Positions 20,108 through 28,687 of a DNA stretch of 64,000 nucleotides are shown here, piece after piece (within the stretch, counting starts at the first letter, position 1; the number at the start of each line of letters is the position of its first letter). A program made the position numbers and the translations under genes. The notes under the pieces are model-generated. The model was given only the letters and a program-made list of their open reading frames with translations. It made no database searches and was not told where the DNA came from. The DNA lies in NCBI GenBank assembly GCA_913057895.1, contig CAJXOH010000001.1:110584-174583 (forward strand), read 5' to 3'. The DNA comes from an uncultured Bacteroidota bacterium (GTDB lineage: Bacteria; Bacteroidota; Rhodothermia; Balneolales; Balneolaceae).

Positions 20108-20893
20108 TTATGACTGAAGTTGCGAAAGAAAACTCTGCAAAGCTTCCTTTGAATTATGGCTTGATGAATCCATCAACACGCGTAGAAGGGCACTGCCCAC
20201 AATAAATCCATCAATGAGATCTTCATACGGCTCAATATCTGAGCGCTGTTGAATGCCAAACCCTGCCATAATGTGATTATTGGTCACTATATGGCGTACT
20301 CTTTCTAAAAATGTCCGTGTATTTGACGTGTATTGAGAGGCATTCCCCCCAGTAACACCTGTAACCATCACAATGTAGAGAAAGCCACTGCAAAGCCTAT
20401 CAAGCTCTTGAATGCGATCATCTGTGGATGTGGGTGTAATTAACCCAATAAGTGAGCATTGATGCGCATGAAAAATTTCTCTGACTCTATCCATTTCTTC
20501 AAGCGGTACATCGGGTAAGATGACACCATCGACTCCTACTCTTTCACATTCTTGTGCAAATGCCTCAATCCCATAATGAAGAACAGGATTGATATACCCC
20601 ATCAAAACAATGGGTGTCTCGTGACGATTTCGGAAAGATTGAATCGCTTCAAAGATCCACGGTAAATGGACTCCTTGCTGAAGTGCTAGTTCATTCGCTT
20701 TTTGGATTGTAGGTCCATCAGCTAGTGGATCACTAAACGGCATCCCAATTTCAATGATAGAAGCTCCAGAAGCGACCAGTGAATCTAATGTCTCTTGAAA
20801 CTGATCTAGAGATGGTAATCCAGCCGTTATATAAAGAGTTTTGGCAAGTTCCTCTTGAGGTTTATGAGCAAAATAGTGAGTGAGTCGATTCAT
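20108..20893 (-). CDS. trpA: tryptophan synthase alpha chain
   Basis: 261 aa. Motifs: IEIGMPFSDPLADGPTIQ, and GFGI near the C-terminus. Confidence 0.95.
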   Translation of the reverse strand: MNRLTHYFAHKPQEELAKTLYITAGLPSLDQFQETLDSLVASGASIIEIGMPFSDPLADGPTIQKANELALQQGVHLPWIFEAIQSFRNRHETPIVLMGYINPVLHYGIEAFAQECERVGVDGVILPDVPLEEMDRVREIFHAHQCSLIGLITPTSTDDRIQELDRLCSGFLYIVMVTGVTGGNASQYTSNTRTFLERVRHIVTNNHIMAGFGIQQRSDIEPYEDLIDGFIVGSALLRVLMDSSSHNSKEALQSFLSQLQS

Positions 20894-22089
20894 CAGAGTC
20901 CTCTAGAGGCTGTTCTGTATGACGTGATCATCTCCATATCTTTATCGCCCCTACCCGAGCAGTTAATGACAACCAAGCGCCCGTCTTGAATCGTTTGTTG
21001 TTTATCCAACCAGGCAAATGCATGTGCAGTCTCCAAGGCAGGTATTATCCCTTCCAATGCAGCGCATGTTTCGAGCGCTCTCATTGCCTCTTGATCGGTC
21101 GCTGCTAGGTATTGAACACGTCCTTGATCCTTCCAATAGGAATGTTCTGGACCTACGCCTGGATAATCGAGCCCAGCGCTAATGCTGTGTGCCAAATCAA
21201 CTTGACCATGATCGTCCTGTAAAAGATAACTCAGAGATCCATGGAGCACCCCAGGCTTTCCTTTTGAAAGTGTAGCAGCAGTTTTTTTACTCTCAATGCC
21301 ATGTCCAGCAGCTTCAACCCCAAACATTTCCACGTCTTTATCGTCAATAAATGGATGAAAAAAGCCAGCAGCATTACTGCCACCACCTACGCAAGCAACT
21401 AGAGCGTCAGGGGTTCTCCCCTCCATCTCAAAGAGTTGCGCTCGTGTTTCCAATCCAATAACACGATGAAAATTTCTCGTCATCAACGGGTACGGATGGG
21501 GACCAACAACAGATCCAATAATGTAGAAACACTCCTCCACATGGGTTACCCAGTGGCGAATAGCTTCACTAGTCGCATCTTTAAGTGTTCTTGTTCCACT
21601 AGTAACGGGTCGAACTTCTGCGCCCATCAACTGCATCCGCTCAACATTTAAGCGCTGCCGTTTTACATCCTCTTCACCCATGTAGACAATGCATTCCAAA
21701 CCGTACTTGGCGCATGCTGTCGCAGTAGCCACACCATGTTGCCCTGCCCCAGTTTCGGCGATAATTTTCGTCTTCCCCATTTTCTTAGCCAAGAGGGCTT
21801 GTCCAATGGCATTGTTAATTTTGTGCGCCCCCGTATGACAGAGGTCTTCACGTTTTAGATAAATCTTAAGCCCGTAGTGCTCTGACAATCTTGGTGCATA
21901 ACTCAATGGTGTTGCTCGACCCACAAAGTGCTGTAAAGCTTGATCTAATTCAGCGTGAAACTCCTGATCTTGTTCCAATTCATGATACGCCTGTGTAAGA
22001 GCTTCTAAAGCGGGAATTAACGTTTCTGGAACAAACTGTCCGCCGTACTCTCCAAAATATCCAGTCTTCTTCGTTGTTGCTTGTTGCAT
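20893..22089 (-). CDS. trpB: tryptophan synthase beta chain
   Basis: 398 aa. PLP-lysine motif [11 protein letters not shown], plus GGGSNAAG. Confidence 0.97.
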
Positions 22090-22092
22090 GCC

Positions 22093-22740
22093 TTAAGATG
22101 TTGTTTTTAAAAGAGAAGTCAAATGAGTGATTTTATCATAATCCTTGACTCCAGGCTCAATTTCCACACCAGAATTGACATCGAAACCATATGGTCTTAC
22201 AATTTTCAGAGCTTCCTGAATCCGTTGGGCATGTAATCCACCCCCTATCCAGTATGGTTTATGTATGATGCACTTTGTGAGTATAGACCAATCAAAGGCT
22301 TCTCCCGTACCTCCACGCTGCGTCGAACCCTCTTGCTCCACTTGAGTATCAAATAAAAATTCATCCACAAAAGGGCTATACATCTCAATTTGTTGCTGAA
22401 TACGTTGTACGGAATCAGAAGAACGAATGCTAATGGTCTTGATTACTGGTACGTCCAACGTATCACAGTAGTGAGGCGGTTCATCTCCATGAAGCTGAAT
22501 GTGAGAGCAACCGGACCGTTTTAGTATCGTTTGGACTTCTTCAAGGGGTTGGTCCATTGTGACTGCAACCATATCCATACCCTCAATCCACTGGGTAATG
22601 GCTCCAACGAGATTCACATCGACGGTTCTTTTACTTTCTTGCGTGAAAATAAACCCTAATCGATCTACAAAGGCACCTGCACAAAAACGTGCATCCTCGA
22701 GACTTCTTATACCACAAATTTTAAGCATTGGGTCAGTCAT
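22093..22740 (-). CDS. trpF: phosphoribosylanthranilate isomerase
   Basis: 215 aa. Motifs LKICGI and HIQLHGDE, and position within the trp operon. Confidence 0.9.
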   Translation of the reverse strand: MTDPMLKICGIRSLEDARFCAGAFVDRLGFIFTQESKRTVDVNLVGAITQWIEGMDMVAVTMDQPLEEVQTILKRSGCSHIQLHGDEPPHYCDTLDVPVIKTISIRSSDSVQRIQQQIEMYSPFVDEFLFDTQVEQEGSTQRGGTGEAFDWSILTKCIIHKPYWIGGGLHAQRIQEALKIVRPYGFDVNSGVEIEPGVKDYDKITHLTSLLKTTS

Positions 22741-22743
22741 AGA

Positions 22744-23562
22744 TTATTCTAACTCGTCTGATACCTCTTGGATCCATGTTTGTAATAGGGTTGCGGGATT
22801 GGGCGCTCGCATCAATGCTTCGCCGATAAGGGCTGCATCGATTTGATGTTTAGCACAAGAAAGAAGTGGCTCATAGCTGTGAATACCACTCTCTAAAACA
22901 CGAACCACACTAGAAGGGATTTGATCTAATTGCTGAAACCCAGAATCTGCATCCGTGTCGAAGGTTGCTAGATTCCGACTATTTATCCCAACCGCTGATA
23001 ACCTATCCTTGAATGGTTCGATTCTTGACCATGCTTCTGCTGAATCAAGTTCCATTAAAATGCCAAGATGACATTGTTTTGCCGCATCTATTAATTCTTT
23101 GATCTGTGTATCACTTAGTATTCGTTCAATAAGTAATATGGCATCAGCACCAAACGCTTTTGCCTCGAATACCTGATAGGGATCGATGATAAAGTCCTTT
23201 CGTAACAAAGCAAGTTGTACATGGCTTCGTGCTTCAGATAAATCTTGCAATGACCCATAAAAGAATGGAGAGTCTGTTAAGATGGAGCAGGCCGCTGCTC
23301 CTCCCTTTTCATATGCTTTGCATTGTACACTTGGCATAGCATCTGGTGCAAAATGCCCCTTAGAAGGTGAGCCACGTTTAAATTCAGCAATAATTGATGG
23401 CATTTGTGACGAAGGTCCATCCTTACGTTTTAATGCATCTTTAAAAGAGAATGTGGGGCGATGAGTGTATTCGAATCCATCGAAATCATTGAGTGATACT
23501 CTAGATCTATGTTTTCTTATCTCCGATTGTTTGCTTTCCACAATTTGATCAAGAATTGTCAT
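22744..23562 (-). CDS. trpC: indole-3-glycerol-phosphate synthase
   Basis: 272 aa. Motifs: IIAEFKRGSPSKG, LRKDFIIDPYQV, VGINSRNL. Confidence 0.95.
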   Translation of the reverse strand: MTILDQIVESKQSEIRKHRSRVSLNDFDGFEYTHRPTFSFKDALKRKDGPSSQMPSIIAEFKRGSPSKGHFAPDAMPSVQCKAYEKGGAAACSILTDSPFFYGSLQDLSEARSHVQLALLRKDFIIDPYQVFEAKAFGADAILLIERILSDTQIKELIDAAKQCHLGILMELDSAEAWSRIEPFKDRLSAVGINSRNLATFDTDADSGFQQLDQIPSSVVRVLESGIHSYEPLLSCAKHQIDAALIGEALMRAPNPATLLQTWIQEVSDELE

Positions 23563-24604
23563 GTCCTACCTCAATCATTGATTGCAGAATTCGCCATGCT
23601 GCACCGCTGTCAATTGAATCCTTAGCCATTTGCACAGCCTCAAGACGATCAATGTCTGGATGGACGATCTGTATGGCTGCTGCTGCGTTCATACAAACGG
23701 TGTCTATTTTGGCCTCATCCGCTCGATTTTGCAGTATTTGACGCAATAATTCTGCATTCTCATCAGGGGGTCCACCAACAATGGAGTCCTTGGATCCCTT
23801 TTTTACGCCAAATTGTTCAAATGATGTCTCTGTTTGAAGAACGTCTGTATTACCTGGGATGGCATGAAAACTAGTAGCATGACCAAAGGGCACCCACTCA
23901 TCATATCCATCATGATGATGAAACACAGTCGCATGAACTCCACGGACGTGAAGTGATTGAGCCATCGCTTTAGCTACCTCTACGTTATATGCACCAATAA
24001 GTTGATGGGATGGATTTGCAGGATTTAGGAGGGGTCCCATTACATTGAAAATGGTTCGTATTCCTAGTGATTGTCGGATTGGCGCTACATGCTTTAGAAT
24101 TGGATGGAAGGACGGTGCAAATAAAAAGACACTTCCAATTTCATTAAAAATTGATTGTAGTGTCTCTATAGACGCGCTTACGGGCACTCCTAGCTCTTGA
24201 AGCACATCAGAGGATCCGCTTGATGATGTAACTCCACGATTCCCATGCTTTACGACGTTGAAACCGGCCCCAGCAAGTACAAAAAAGGCCGTGGTAGAGA
24301 TATTAAATGTCTGTTGTCCATCTCCACCTGTACCACACACATCAAGAATTGGACCTGATGTAGGTACGTCAAATGCGATCATATGCTTTCGTACGACGTC
24401 TACGGCAAGGGTTAATATGGATTCATGCACAGGAAATCTTGAGAGATGACGTAAGTATGATTCAGAGATAGTTGCGTCCAATGTCCCATCAACCAATGCC
24501 TCAAAGCATTCCCTATGTTGACTCACGTCGTGTTCATAGAGACGATCTGTGGTACTTATTTGTGTCACCCATGATGCGATAGCGGAAAGATCCTTCTCAC
24601 TCAT
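23549..24604 (-). CDS. trpD: anthranilate phosphoribosyltransferase
   Basis: 351 aa. Motifs: DVCGTGGDGQQTFNIST, KHGNRGVTSSSGSSD. Confidence 0.95.
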   Translation of the reverse strand: MSEKDLSAIASWVTQISTTDRLYEHDVSQHRECFEALVDGTLDATISESYLRHLSRFPVHESILTLAVDVVRKHMIAFDVPTSGPILDVCGTGGDGQQTFNISTTAFFVLAGAGFNVVKHGNRGVTSSSGSSDVLQELGVPVSASIETLQSIFNEIGSVFLFAPSFHPILKHVAPIRQSLGIRTIFNVMGPLLNPANPSHQLIGAYNVEVAKAMAQSLHVRGVHATVFHHHDGYDEWVPFGHATSFHAIPGNTDVLQTETSFEQFGVKKGSKDSIVGGPPDENAELLRQILQNRADEAKIDTVCMNAAAAIQIVHPDIDRLEAVQMAKDSIDSGAAWRILQSMIEVGHDNS

Positions 24605-25167
24605 AATGACTCAATCCAATTCTTAATCATTGTTTCCCCATCAGGAGTCAAAATGCTCTCTGGATGAAATTGCACTCCTTGAATTGGATACTCCTTGTGC
24701 CTAACTCCCATAATCACTCCCTCTTTTGTCTTACAAGTTACTTGAAGAACAGATGGTAACGTGTTGTTATCCAATGCTAAAGAGTGATATCTAGTAGCTG
24801 TAAATGGTGTTGGTACATTCTTAAATAATGGATCACCATCATGCTGAACAGATGATATTTTTCCATGCATGAGTGTGGGTGCATGGATGACATCCCCTCC
24901 AAATACCTGACCAATGGCCTGATGGCCCAAGCAAACACCAAGTATGGGTATACTCGAGCCAAATTGACGTAATACGTCTTCTGTAACTCCTGCATTCTCA
25001 GGTCTTCCTGGCCCGGGAGAGAGTAAAACTCCTTTTGGGCCTAGTTCACGAATCTGTTGTAGTGTTATTTCATCGTTTCGGACGGTCTTGACCTCTATAC
25101 CTTGAATAGAAACTAGATTTACAAGGTTATATGTAAACGAATCATAATTATCGATCACTAAAATCAT
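24601..25167 (-). CDS. trpG: anthranilate synthase component II (glutamine amidotransferase)
   Basis: 188 aa. Motifs: ILVIDNYDSFTYNLV, GVCLGHQAI, VQFHPES. Confidence 0.95.
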   Translation of the reverse strand: MILVIDNYDSFTYNLVNLVSIQGIEVKTVRNDEITLQQIRELGPKGVLLSPGPGRPENAGVTEDVLRQFGSSIPILGVCLGHQAIGQVFGGDVIHAPTLMHGKISSVQHDGDPLFKNVPTPFTATRYHSLALDNNTLPSVLQVTCKTKEGVIMGVRHKEYPIQGVQFHPESILTPDGETMIKNWIESL

Positions 25168-25175
25168 ACAGAACG

Positions 25176-26162
25176 CTACAAGTCTATCTTCGTTTTGAGT
25201 AGTCCAAACTCCTCACGAACTGCGTCCATAAGGGGAGCTGCTTTTTTCCTGGCTTGATTTCCCCCACTAGCAAGAATATCCATCACATCATCAGGGCGTT
25301 GAGCAAGTGTTCTGCGTTTCTCTCGGGCTTCTCCAAAATGATCATCCATAAGATCTTGTAACGCTTGCTTTGCATGCCCATATCCATATCCTCCTGATTT
25401 GTACGCAGTGGCAATTTCATCTGCTTTTTCATCGGTTGCAAAGAGCTTAATTAACTCAAATACAGTACATGACTCTGGATCTTTTGGGTCCTCTAATCCT
25501 TTAGAATCGGTAACAATGGTTCCAATAGTTTTTTTGAGGGCCTTTCCCTCTGCAAATATGGGAATGGTGTTGCCGGAACTCTTGCTCATTTTCTTACCAT
25601 CTGTCCCTGGAACATTGGCTCCCTTTTCAACAAACAACGGCTCAGGTACAGTTAGGAGCTCTTTTTGTGCAGAATGATTCACTTTTTGAGCAAGATCCCG
25701 AGCGATTTCAATATTCTGCTTTTGATCCTCTCCAACTGGAACAACATTTGCTTGCATGATGAGGATATCAGCAGCTTGAAGAATGGGATAGGTAAATAAA
25801 CCGATATTTGAAGCAAGGCCTTGAGAAAGTTTGTCTTTATACGCCACCCCTTTTTCCATCAACGATACGGGTGAGAACGTGCCTAGGATCCAGGCGAGTT
25901 CCGTTGTTTCAGGAACATCAGACTGTAAATATAGTGTGCACGTCGCAGGATCAAGCCCTAATGCAAGGTAGTCAATCGCAACATCTAGTGAATATTGAGC
26001 CAAGGATTGGCCATCATGTAAGGAGGTCAGAGAATGATAATTGGCAATAAAGTAGTAGGACTGGTCAGGTGTATTTTGCCGGTGTATATGTTGACGAATC
26101 GCACCAAAATAATTCCCAAGATGTAATTGACCAGAAGGTTGAATTCCTGAAAGTGTGATCAT
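25176..26162 (-). CDS. trpS: tryptophan--tRNA ligase
   Basis: 328 aa. It has the class-I HIGH-type motif (GIQPSGQLHLGNYFG) and KMSKS. It lies 6 nt after the trpE stop and 8 nt before trpG. Confidence 0.96.
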   Translation of the reverse strand: MITLSGIQPSGQLHLGNYFGAIRQHIHRQNTPDQSYYFIANYHSLTSLHDGQSLAQYSLDVAIDYLALGLDPATCTLYLQSDVPETTELAWILGTFSPVSLMEKGVAYKDKLSQGLASNIGLFTYPILQAADILIMQANVVPVGEDQKQNIEIARDLAQKVNHSAQKELLTVPEPLFVEKGANVPGTDGKKMSKSSGNTIPIFAEGKALKKTIGTIVTDSKGLEDPKDPESCTVFELIKLFATDEKADEIATAYKSGGYGYGHAKQALQDLMDDHFGEAREKRRTLAQRPDDVMDILASGGNQARKKAAPLMDAVREEFGLLKTKIDL

Positions 26163-26168
26163 AGTGAA

Positions 26169-27710
26169 TTAAGTTAACGTTTTGGCTAACGCAACTGCAT
26201 GTCGCAACGCGTTTGATTTATGCAGCGTTTCTTGGTACTCCGAAGTCGCATCACTATCGGCAACAATCCCTGCACCTGCCTGGATTCTTAAGGTATCACC
26301 TTCAAGTATAAAGGTCCGAATCGCAATACAGGTATCCATGTTCCCCTTAAAGTCAAAATACCCCACCGCGCCTGCATAAGGGCCTCTGTGATGTGGCTCG
26401 AGCTCGTTGAGTATCTGCATCGCTCTAACTTTTGGTGCACCAGACACGGTTCCCGCTGGAAAACACGCTTTAAGGACACTTAATGCGTCATAATCGTCAT
26501 GGACGAACCCTTTAACCTCACTCACAATGTGCATTACATGAGAGAAGTACTCTACCTCCATTTGCTTGCTCACATGAATTGAACCATGCTCACAAACTCG
26601 GGAGAGATCATTGCGACCCAGATCAATAAGCATGGTATGTTCGGCTAATTCTTTTTGATCAGACAATAATTCCTTTGCATATGCGGCATCCTGTTGTTCA
26701 TTCTCGCCTCTTGGTCGTGTTCCAGCAATTGGATAAAGAACGGCTGTACGATCCTTCACCTGGACCAAAATTTCAGGAGAGGACCCAACAAGCGTACATT
26801 CATCTGGATGGTGGATGAAGAACATGTAGGGTGAAGGATTTACATGGCGTAAGGCTCTATATAAATTGAGCGAATCATATGGGAAATCCATTGTAAGTGC
26901 TCTAGATAAAACAACTTGAAATGCATCTCCTTCATGAATGTGAGTCTTGATTGTCTTTACAGCTTGTTCAAAATCTGTTTGTGTAAATGGAGACTCAAAC
27001 GATTCATCGTTACGTGTAATCGCACCTAAAGAGTCAAAGGTTTGTTCACCAGATGACAGGCTTCTAGCCATCTTTTGAAGTGCATGTTCTGCTTCATCAA
27101 AAAGGTCCCTCAATGATTCATTAGACGTTAAAGAGTCCTGAGAAGGAAAAACTAGTTTTGTCAATGTGCACGTCTGTTTGACATGGTCAAATTGAATGAA
27201 CTCGTCAAAAAGCATCCAAAGTGCAATTGGATTCTCATTCTCTATCGATTTCTTTTTGGGTTCCTTAGTGGCTTCATTCTCAATTGGTTCAAATTGATGG
27301 ATCCATTCATAGGACGTAAACCCTACAATTCCGCCATGGAACCCCCCACTTTGTAGTTGTAATTCAATGGACTCAGCCCATGTTTTGCTAGCCATCCATT
27401 GCCGAAGCGTTTCATCCCATGGACTTGGTAGTACCTCGTGCGTATTGGGTGAGCCTCGATGGAATACATGAGTCCCAGAAGAGTATCCCTTCCATGTTAT
27501 CATGGGGTTGGCCCCTAAAAATGAGTATCTACCCATTGCTTGGTCAGCACTTACACTTTCAAACAAGAAATGTGCTTTGTCAGGATGAGCAGCTCGCAAC
27601 GAACGCGCTGCCTGAACAGGGGTGATTTGATCAGAAAGAAGTGTAATTGTGCATGGTATTACACCCCCAGGTATTGCTGCATCCTTAAATTGTGAAAATG
27701 TACAATCCAT
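26169..27710 (-). CDS. trpE: anthranilate synthase component I
   Basis: 513 aa. Chorismate-binding motifs: GRNDLSRV, PAGTVSGAPKVRAM, RGPYAGAVGYF. Confidence 0.96.
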   Translation of the reverse strand: MDCTFSQFKDAAIPGGVIPCTITLLSDQITPVQAARSLRAAHPDKAHFLFESVSADQAMGRYSFLGANPMITWKGYSSGTHVFHRGSPNTHEVLPSPWDETLRQWMASKTWAESIELQLQSGGFHGGIVGFTSYEWIHQFEPIENEATKEPKKKSIENENPIALWMLFDEFIQFDHVKQTCTLTKLVFPSQDSLTSNESLRDLFDEAEHALQKMARSLSSGEQTFDSLGAITRNDESFESPFTQTDFEQAVKTIKTHIHEGDAFQVVLSRALTMDFPYDSLNLYRALRHVNPSPYMFFIHHPDECTLVGSSPEILVQVKDRTAVLYPIAGTRPRGENEQQDAAYAKELLSDQKELAEHTMLIDLGRNDLSRVCEHGSIHVSKQMEVEYFSHVMHIVSEVKGFVHDDYDALSVLKACFPAGTVSGAPKVRAMQILNELEPHHRGPYAGAVGYFDFKGNMDTCIAIRTFILEGDTLRIQAGAGIVADSDATSEYQETLHKSNALRHAVALAKTLT

Positions 27711-27718
27711 CTAGAAAC

Positions 27719-27751
27719 AAAAAATCCACTGCATTTCGTGTACAGTGGATT
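27719..27751 (-). terminator. intrinsic terminator of the trp attenuator
   Basis: On the minus strand, AATCCACTG (27751-27743), then an 11-nt loop, then CAGTGGATT (27731-27723) running into TTTTTTGTTT. It ends about 10 nt before the trpE ATG at 27710. Confidence 0.65.
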
Positions 27752-27769
27752 GGACGTACGAAATGCAGT
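27728..27769 (-). promoter_or_regulatory. trp attenuator antiterminator hairpin (12-bp perfect stem)
   Basis: On the minus strand, ACTGCATTTCGT (27769-27758) pairs with ACGAAATGCAGT (27739-27728), with an 18-nt loop. The 3' arm covers the loop and 3' arm of the terminator, so the two structures are mutually exclusive. Confidence 0.65.
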
Positions 27770-27778
27770 TCGAGTTCG

Positions 27779-27820
27779 TTACCTCCACCAAGCGTTGTTA
27801 TGTGTTGAATACGTCTGCAT
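27779..27820 (-). CDS. trpL: trp operon leader peptide (13 aa, MQTYSTHNNAWWR)
   Basis: Minus-strand ATG CAG ACG TAT TCA ACA CAT AAC AAC GCT TGG TGG AGG TAA. It carries tandem Trp codons two codons before the stop and lies directly upstream of the antiterminator/terminator pair and trpE. The ending resembles E. coli TrpL (..GWWRTS). Confidence 0.7.
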   Translation of the reverse strand: MQTYSTHNNAWWR

Positions 27821-27828
27821 TATGAGTT

Positions 27829-27859
27829 CAAAGGTAAATGAGTTTGTGCTAACCTACAA
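27829..27859 (-). promoter_or_regulatory. candidate Bacteroidota-type promoter for the trp leader (-33 TTG / -7 TACCTTTG)
   Basis: On the minus strand, TTG (27859-27857), a 20-nt spacer, then TACCTTTG (27836-27829), which matches the TAnnTTTG -7 consensus. It sits 8 nt upstream of the leader ATG, implying a very short or absent 5' UTR. Confidence 0.3.
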
Positions 27860-27916
27860 TTAATTGAAATGCAATTTATGGAACCCCATAGACGAGAAGC
27901 TTTTTATATTTAAGCT

Positions 27917-28687
27917 ATGCAACACGCTCAGATTCTTCCCTTGCTCCTTTTCCTATCGTTTATAATACTCTCATGTGAGCAGGCCGTAAGTGATCAACCA
28001 TCACAACAACTTACGTTCGAATCTGTAACATTTTTGCCTTCAAATGTGGAATACACCTCCGATGTTATACAGGATACAACACTGAATGTGTCATTTCAGG
28101 GGGAATTAAATCAAAAAACGACAGGTACACAAGGGGTCGCGTTTGTAACAAAAGGGTCAGCATCACCCCTATTTCTTGATGTTGAACTACAAGAGAATGG
28201 GACCTTTGATGCAGCTGGTCAATTAACCTTAAATACGGGTGAATCCACCACAATTCGTGCACGTATTGAATTTGTTGATCCTAATGGTCAACAAGTTAGC
28301 TATGAAACCTCCATTCCTATTGTGGGTGTTGCCGATGAAGCGCCTGTGATTGAGTCAATTACCCATGCAGATTCTGTGAGGATTCCCTCTTCAGGGTCCA
28401 CATCAATAGTCTTTGTTGCAGAGGTATCCCACCCTATAAGCTTGCAGAATATCGCTTCCGTGACGATGGAATTGATTGATGCTAGCACAAATGAGTCCAG
28501 AGGTGTATTTACGTTGGGAGATCAAGGCCAAGATGGGGATCAGCAAGCCAATGATGGTGAATATTTTGTAGGGTTAAGTATCAATGAAGACAATCAACCT
28601 GCGAGCTACCTATTGAGATGGAATGCAACGTCCGTGACAGGTTTATCGGCACCAGAAAAAACGACCACCCTAGAGATCTTCAGGTAA
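27917..28687 (+). CDS. lipoprotein, function unknown (first gene of the 27917-38066 operon)
   Basis: 256 aa with lipobox FIILSC. It appears beta-rich/Ig-like and has an acidic DQGQDGDQQANDGEYF segment. Its stop overlaps the next ATG (TAATG). Confidence 0.6.
   Translation: MQHAQILPLLLFLSFIILSCEQAVSDQPSQQLTFESVTFLPSNVEYTSDVIQDTTLNVSFQGELNQKTTGTQGVAFVTKGSASPLFLDVELQENGTFDAAGQLTLNTGESTTIRARIEFVDPNGQQVSYETSIPIVGVADEAPVIESITHADSVRIPSSGSTSIVFVAEVSHPISLQNIASVTMELIDASTNESRGVFTLGDQGQDGDQQANDGEYFVGLSINEDNQPASYLLRWNATSVTGLSAPEKTTTLEIFR

Follow-up and report, generated by a model that had tools for sequence, protein, structure and literature searches.

The trp locus of an uncultured, streamlined Balneolaceae-type bacterium, known from a metagenome-assembled genome (MAG), raises the question of how transcription of the tryptophan genes is adjusted to the supply of tryptophan, and in particular what function resides in the 206 nucleotides (nt) that separate the start codon of trpE (27710) from a divergent plus-strand gene starting at 27917 in the 64,000-nt stretch analysed here (the window, to which all coordinates refer). 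This gap very probably harbours a ribosome-mediated leader-peptide transcription attenuator, by which the supply of charged tRNA-Trp would set the read-through into trpE-trpS-trpGDCFBA. An earlier reading made from the letters of the window (the sequence-only reading) had already proposed a Trp attenuator consisting of a leader peptide and a mutually exclusive antiterminator and terminator, a proposal now supported by the position of the element, its distribution and conservation, and by folds computed with a ribosome mask. No open reading frame (ORF) of at least 60 aa overlaps 27711-27916 on either strand, and the features of the attenuator, all read on the minus strand, are as follows.

27829 to 27859, minus strand: promoter-like region with TTG (27859-27857), a 20-nt spacer and the TAnnTTTG-type box TACCTTTG (27836-27829), from sequence and conservation
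27779 to 27820, minus strand: leader ORF MQTYSTHNNAWWR with its stop codon, from sequence, conserved genus- and order-wide
27746 to 27790, minus strand: anti-antiterminator ('1:2'), UGGUGGAGGUAACGAA (27790-27775) with UUCGUACGUCCAAUCCA (27762-27746), from minimum-free-energy (MFE) folds
27728 to 27769, minus strand: antiterminator, ACUGCAUUUCGU (27769-27758) with ACGAAAUGCAGU (27739-27728), 12 bp with an 18-nt loop, -15.6 kcal/mol
27715 to 27751, minus strand: intrinsic terminator, AAUCCACUGUA (27751-27741), loop CACGAAA, UGCAGUGGAUU (27733-27723), then UUUUGUUU (27722-27715), -13.9 kcal/mol

The leader ORF comprises 13 codons, carries tandem TGG TGG at 27790-27785 and terminates with TAA at 27781-27779, and this short tandem-Trp ORF (27820-27779) is situated immediately before the trp biosynthesis genes, the first of which, trpE, starts at 27710. 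The box TACCTTTG ends 8 nt 5' of the leader ATG (27820), and nine nt 3' of the leader stop ACTGCATTTCGT (27769-27758) pairs perfectly with ACGAAATGCAGT (27739-27728); the box 8 nt before the ATG, the 13-codon ORF with its two Trp codons and the perfect 12-bp pairing 9 nt past the stop are thus all present as the sequence-only reading had described them. Further into the gap, AATCCACTGTA (27751-27741) pairs with TGCAGTGGATT (27733-27723) and is followed by TTTTGTTT, which computationally represents an intrinsic terminator between the leader ORF and trpE, ending 4 nt before the trpE ATG. Its presence before trpE had been correctly predicted, while its dimensions had been underestimated, as the stem AATCCACTG/CAGTGGATT, previously given as 9 bp with an 11-nt loop, extends to 11 bp with a 7-nt loop. 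The possibility that this terminator serves the upstream gene was ruled out, that gene being divergent on the plus strand. The loop of the antiterminator holds the 5' arm of the terminator, and the 3' arm of the antiterminator uses the terminator loop together with 6 of the 11 nt of the terminator 3' arm; owing to this sharing of the loop and of 27733-27728 the two structures are mutually exclusive, in accordance with the earlier view that just one of them can form. That view had treated its leader ORF, antiterminator and terminator as a complete set and had overlooked a predicted anti-antiterminator (27790-27775 with 27762-27746), whose core (27786-27775 with 27762-27752) amounts to -9.7 kcal/mol, which contains the two Trp codons together with the Arg and stop codons, and whose 3' strand takes in UUCGU, five nt at the inner end of the antiterminator 5' arm.

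Chance is an unlikely origin for this arrangement of hairpins. When the 78-nt core was shuffled 2000 times with its dinucleotides kept, a perfect 12-bp stem arose once, and the MFE of the core (-23.7) lies well below the shuffle mean (-15.9; z = -2.7), while the stability of the wider 146-nt stretch is not unusual (z = -0.58). A scan of 27400-28200 returned one terminator-like site, that of the attenuator; shuffled sequences yield 0.7 such sites per 800 nt, so that a single one is roughly at chance level.

Conservation was assessed with an alignment of seven genus-level loci that represent five distinct attenuator sequences. Additional copies of the genus type were sought in genome contigs, in metagenome contigs and by a search of 5.8 billion proteins, and these sources together provided the same five distinct sequences only, which are too alike for covariation, two further loci (L066 and L067) being without an upstream region. 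The leader ORF is constant at 13 codons in all seven loci, with an invariant ATGCAGA start and an invariant GCT TGG TGG AGG TAA end enclosing middle codons that vary. In every genus pair the 81-nt segment that begins at the first Trp codon and runs up to the trpE ATG has 94-100% identity, whereas across the deeper splits of the genus trpE DNA retains 65-69% identity and the leader ORF, over its first 30 nt, 53-63%. Six sites in the attenuator are variable, namely 27774, 27769, 27739, 27738, 27737 and 27725: the first two sit in the anti-antiterminator loop, 27769 also forming the outermost antiterminator pair; the next three sit in the loop of the terminator, where the antiterminator has its inner end; and at 27725 a terminator U-A pair becomes U-G. 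Five of the six sites fall in predicted loops or preserve pairing through a wobble, the sixth being a mismatch in L064. In the 11 terminator pairs 100% of the alignment cells are paired, with 10 pairs invariant, one showing a one-sided wobble change and none with unpaired cells; the corresponding figures for the 12 antiterminator pairs are 93% of cells paired, 8 invariant, 2 with one-sided wobble changes and 2 with unpaired cells. All paired positions of the anti-antiterminator are invariant in the genus, and its pairing, predicted by folding, is neither supported nor refuted by that invariance.

The free RNA adopts as its MFE structure the anti-antiterminator together with the terminator, at -25.1 for the window sequence and -23.6 to -25.1 over the five genus variants. 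When successively longer prefixes of the transcript were folded without a ribosome, the anti-antiterminator appeared once the RNA had emerged to 27745; once the second Trp codon was masked by a ribosome, the antiterminator constituted the MFE structure at every length (-17.5) and the terminator was not formed. The same held in all five genus variants for a mask on either Trp codon (W11 or W12), where the antiterminator was the MFE structure, in each case on thermodynamic grounds and with no support from covariation, and the exception was the widest mask (A+14), which, when set on W12, turned L002/L003 and L064 to the terminator. In the calculation that the sequence-only reading had put forward as a check, of minimum-free-energy and constrained folds, the free RNA thus favours the terminator and a ribosome on the Trp codons favours the antiterminator, and the predicted folds of the five variants are in line with its expectation that a ribosome stalled at TGG TGG leaves the antiterminator free.

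From the sequence elements, their conservation and their thermodynamics we infer the following course of events, from the start of transcription through leader translation and the moment of ribosome release to termination in vivo. Transcription would start a few nt upstream of the leader AUG, and the 13-codon leader would be translated by a ribosome. When charged tRNA-Trp is scarce, this ribosome would stall with the UGG at 27790 or 27787 in its A site, covering 27790-27775, and would thereby prevent formation of the anti-antiterminator, leaving UUCGU (27762-27758) free. The free UUCGU could then pair with ACGAAA (27739-27734) of the terminator loop, which is made before the terminator 3' arm, and this pairing would zip up to the 12-bp antiterminator, removing UGCAGU from the terminator and allowing RNA polymerase to read on. 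When charged tRNA-Trp is plentiful, the ribosome would depart at UAA and 27790-27775 would pair with 27762-27746, a pairing also expected when the leader is untranslated, with the same outcome as Trp plenty. With the inner antiterminator arm sequestered in this manner, the local terminator of 11 bp and a 7-nt loop would presumably close first, as the order of transcription suggests, and transcription would stop at the U-tract.

What happens at the leader stop codon calls for an amendment of the earlier reading. The sequence-only reading had assumed a three-element switch in which a stalled ribosome leaves the antiterminator arm free and a ribosome at UAA occludes it, with no need for an anti-antiterminator, and although such a simpler switch is conceivable we regard it as unlikely. 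With UAA in the A site, the 5' arm of the antiterminator begins at A-site +12. This position coincides with the leading edge of the ribosome, as established by toeprint and footprint geometry, so that at most 0-2 of the 12 pairs would be blocked in the window sequence; a ribosome at the stop codon hence barely reaches the arm that it had been supposed to occlude. What survives of the occlusion claim is that the window sequence, folded with a stop-codon ribosome, keeps the antiterminator for masking up to A+12 and flips its MFE structure to the terminator from A+13 onwards, and that three other genus variants with weaker antiterminators do so already from A+9. Occlusion also gains some credit from other families of the order, in which the leader stop abuts or overlaps the antiterminator arm (UGA AGCGG, UAA GCGG), but it leaves the invariance of GGAGGUAACGAA and of ACGUCC unexplained. 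The modelled folds thus indicate that the anti-antiterminator, formed after release of the ribosome, is more likely the robust decision step of the two, to which stop-codon occlusion may contribute marginally.

Several observations speak against the attenuator as formulated here, with or without occlusion. At equilibrium the antiterminator and the terminator are just ~1-2 kcal/mol apart. A ribosome pausing at UAA blocks the anti-antiterminator as well and leaves the antiterminator arm almost wholly free; owing to this, regulation would hinge on kinetics, namely on when the ribosome is released and how it pauses, a weakness common to the occlusion and release versions. One fold pairs the AUGCAG of the leader start with the antiterminator 5' arm even under a stalled ribosome. 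The antiterminator of L064 contains a C-A mismatch, and its outermost pair is lost in three of the five variants. No pair is changed on both sides in the genus alignment, the three helices are without covariation support, and the shuffle controls applied to them were uninformative, so that the structures rest on conservation and thermodynamics and not on covariation; the alignment of relatives suggested by the sequence-only reading accordingly showed the WW ORF and the other elements to be conserved, and revealed no compensatory changes in the genus stems. Lastly, in one genus member, G003 (L004/L033), the promoter-like box and the leader ORF are separated by an additional ~100 nt, indicating that the near-leaderless layout is not universal in the genus.

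Two further explanations accept the element and assign it another function. The first retains the attenuator and adds to it a function in trans for the released transcript of ~110 nt, for the 13-residue peptide, or for both, for which rnTrpL and peTrpL of Sinorhizobium meliloti provide a precedent (PMC6614838, PMC7298713). Such a function could account for the near-identity (94-100%) of the 81 nt in the face of trpE DNA at 65-69%, including positions not required by any predicted helix (27773-27770 and 27740); nevertheless, three overlapping helices, the Trp, Arg and stop codons, the U-tract and the trpE start region constrain nearly every nucleotide, which could by itself explain the conservation, and the peptide varies freely over its N-terminal two thirds; this addition is a rather improbable one. 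If it were true, then in this streamlined genome of 1.7 Mb, where no homologue of TrpR or TRAP was found, the transcript could serve as a hub that links Trp supply with tRNA-Trp charging and further processes. The second, a switch read by an RNA-binding protein, an uncharged tRNA or a small molecule with the WW ORF as a relic, draws on the putative status of leader translation and of its start site and on the extreme conservation, which could reflect a binding site, and is scarcely credible given that throughout the genus neither the Trp codons nor the stop codon nor the length of the ORF changes, that W-rich ORFs are kept in seven families, that neither a T-box nor any other Rfam family matches and the ~80-nt element is too small for a T-box, and that GAG and UAG occur once each where a TRAP array has ~11 repeats. 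Control by TRAP, TrpR or a T-box was rejected on the lack of an Rfam match, of a (G/U)AG array and of homologues: no TRAP (PF02081) homologue was found in the genome, a B. subtilis positive control being detected, and no TrpR (PF01371) homologue was found in it.

The attenuator reading gains breadth from the relatives of the window across the order, for which trpE loci were collected from 40 relatives and the best 30, the window's own included, were kept. A short WW or WWW ORF precedes trpE in 29 of these 30 loci, and among the 29 a G+C-rich hairpin with a U-run, representing a terminator, follows in all but L010 and L028. Outside the genus of the window the Trp run is nearly always TGG TGG TGG, and in most loci 9-11 leader codons precede it, which applies to all leaders except L010 and L028. 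In the 45 nt preceding each leader ATG, seven families show a TAnnTT box that ends 3-8 nt (mostly 7) short of the ATG and a TTG ~19-21 nt further upstream, and compensatory changes were recorded among 15 Balneolaceae leaders in 8 of 16 pairs, which belong to the terminator and to a hairpin just after WWW. On account of the Trp leaders, their spacing and the terminators across the sampled loci, Trp leader-peptide control of the trp operon is apparently an order-wide trait. The window-type core, in contrast to these order-wide features, was encountered in 4 of 283 order genomes (68 genera), all of one genus. The sole sampled locus without a W-rich leader ORF before trpE (L012, from G007) does possess a terminator-like hairpin and comes from another genus, with a small genome of 1.9 Mb.

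The spacing of the promoter-like box bears on how the leader is translated. TTG-N19-21-TAnnTT is kept in the genus and order-wide, and a scan with the sigma-70 consensus gave no match in the promoter-like region. As judged by the box spacing, the transcription start would lie a few nt upstream of the leader AUG and the leader would probably have little or no 5' untranslated region (UTR); no Shine-Dalgarno sequence is present. The recurrence of this spacing in seven families suggests that a leaderless or nearly leaderless leader mRNA is an order-wide design, a pattern with which the near-leaderless mRNA considered possible by the sequence-only reading agrees. The insert of G003, ~110 nt upstream of the leader ATG and after the box (TTGTAGG...TAACTTTG), carries a short ORF, MRKECSGNFIRKI followed by a stop, and a partial AATTGT repeat. 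In the window leader the codons UGG AGG (27782-27786, minus strand) form GGAGG, a perfect Shine-Dalgarno-like string situated just 5' of the stop and inside the 5' strand of the anti-antiterminator; no suitably spaced start codon lies downstream of it. A second mini-ORF at 27711-27734 on the minus strand (ATG CAG TGG ATT TTT TGT TTC TAG; MQWIFCF*) overlaps the terminator 3' arm and the U-tract, and its stop abuts the trpE start exactly (TAG ATG). The hexamer AUGCAG is present twice, once where the leader begins (27820) and once within the antiterminator 3' arm (27734), by virtue of which the leader start can also pair with the antiterminator 5' arm (CUGCAU).

The genes downstream of the attenuator comprise eight closely packed trp genes on one strand, trpE-trpS-trpGDCFBA, with the attenuator immediately 5' of trpE; those listed below were assigned through NCBIfam.

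20108 to 27710, minus strand: trp operon under control, from NCBIfam matches and ORF coordinates
27710 to 26169, minus strand: trpE
26162 to 25176, minus strand: trpS
25167 to 24601, minus strand: trpG
24604 to 23549, minus strand: trpD
23562 to 22744, minus strand: trpC
22740 to 22093, minus strand: trpF
22089 to 20893, minus strand: trpB
20893 to 20108, minus strand: trpA

The presence of trpS within this operon is of consequence, as it is the sole TrpRS-like gene found in the genome (1.68 Mb, 95% complete) and the sensor would thereby also feed back on tRNA-Trp charging. The order trpE-trpS-trpG is retained in nearly all sampled loci of the order, which would place tRNA-Trp charging under the same Trp-codon leader throughout. 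Among SAR202/Dehalococcoidia contigs obtained with the TrpE query (L036, L037, L039-L042, L044, L045, L049-L055) a trpS homologue of ~33% identity lies immediately 5' of trpE, an independent trpS-trp linkage in another phylum. The three named genomes of the window's genus are MAGs labelled 'Bacteroidetes bacterium' or 'Balneolaceae bacterium', and the next-closest TrpE proteins bear the names Balneolaceae, Fodinibius, Rhodohalobacter and Aliifodinibius. TrpE of the window's genus shares 42-45% identity with TrpE of other genera of its own family, as compared to 57-69% for the adjacent TrpS, a difference that would reflect either unusually fast evolution of TrpE in the streamlined lineage or its replacement. 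In a crude genome-wide scan for other leader peptides (short ORFs with amino-acid runs and a terminator), the seven candidates inspected, out of a larger number besides the present leader, proved to lie inside coding sequence or beside unrelated genes, by which other attenuators are not shown to be absent.

The mechanism is not new; the window element is a genus-confined, rewired form within an order-wide set of leaders that Rfam does not cover. What the locus adds is of value for annotation and for the study of how RNA switches evolve, and opens no new question. The Rfam models miss the apparently order-wide Balneolales Trp leaders, from which a new family could be built. The genus of the window shows a switch that was rewired with its logic kept, WWW having given way to WWR, with an early stop and a new antiterminator arm that uses the terminator loop as a toehold. 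Across the order, the leader peptide seems to be made from mRNA that is nearly leaderless, and Trp synthesis and tRNA charging would share one sensor, the sole TrpRS gene being in the attenuated operon.

The comparison with E. coli trpL (RF00513) reveals a short leader ORF in both cases (13 codons here versus 14), two adjacent Trp codons near its end, a location directly before trpE, and an antiterminator and terminator that are mutually exclusive; the anti-antiterminator predicted here would, like that of trpL, contain the Trp and stop codons. In trpL, segment 3 is the 5' arm of the terminator, whereas here the antiterminator pairs with the terminator loop and the first 6 nt of the 3' arm, the terminator 5' arm being looped out. 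The window element further differs from trpL in the distance from the stop to the antiterminator arm (9 nt versus ~3 nt), in the lack of a detectable RF00513 match, in a 5' UTR that is probably very short or absent and has no Shine-Dalgarno sequence, in that TrpR was not found, and in an operon that includes trpS. A scan of 27000-28600 against Rfam at E up to 10 returned no match to RF00513, RF01692, the T-box or any other family; with a gathering threshold of 41 bits for RF00513, the relative L019 reaches 26.6 bits, below that threshold.

Within the Bacteroidota a Trp peptide leader is likewise not without precedent, and the novelty that the sequence-only reading had claimed for this lineage was overstated, as the Bacteroid-trp leader (RF01692), located upstream of trpB and trpE in Bacteroidetes, was proposed by Weinberg et al. 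in 2010 (PMC2864571, supplementary file 1). It resembles the window element in being a predicted Trp peptide leader with at least 2 UGG upstream of trpE or trpB, followed by a hairpin or terminator, in the phylum Bacteroidetes; the published motif is 'a loosely conserved hairpin', with no alternative-structure model (PMC2864571). An Rfam scan of 15 genus and order loci at E up to 1 gave no match to RF01692 or to a T-box, and none to RF00513 above its threshold. An ad hoc covariance model (R1), built from 15 Balneolaceae leaders, scored 25-50 bits in other families of the order (E 3e-7 to 0.01) and 13-15 bits in the other genus members; for the window it gave 13.3 bits at the homologous place, 27799-27718 on the minus strand, with an E value of 1.8, which is not significant.

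A further counterpart of the window element is the order-wide WWW leader of the Balneolales, for which we found no published family. Both occupy the same place before trpE-trpS-trpG, with the same distance from TAnnTT to AUG and 9-11 codons before Trp, and their terminator arms are alike (CCCACUG...CAGUGGG-U7 in the order-wide leader, UCCACUG...CAGUGGA-U6 in the window). The order-wide leaders continue from WWW for 2-15 more codons (3-4 in short-leader families), while in the window WWR is followed by the stop, WWR differing from WWW by one base (UGG to AGG). In the relatives the antiterminator arm (GCAGUGGG or GAAGCGG) lies within the leader ORF or at its end, and its partner is the terminator 5' arm; in the window this ancestral arm is gone, and a new one 3' of the stop pairs with the terminator loop and 3' arm.

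Other comparisons concern what is controlled and how the leader is translated. Classical attenuators before pheST in gamma-proteobacteria and before trpS and leuS in Streptomyces were described by Seliverstov et al. (2005; PMC1262725), and attenuators of the trp operon and of trpS have been predicted in Actinobacteria (PMC1262725). The window element resembles these in that a leader peptide would control the synthetase that charges the sensed tRNA, and differs from them in that trpS lies between trpE and trpG, so that one sensor would serve both biosynthesis and charging. The mycobacterial leaderless polycysteine short-ORF attenuators (Canestrari et al., 2020; bioRxiv 10.1101/834739) belong to another phylum, sense another amino acid and have another structure, and share with the window element a regulatory leader peptide made from a probably leaderless or nearly leaderless mRNA, a likeness that the spacing of the box alone suggests for the bacterium examined here.

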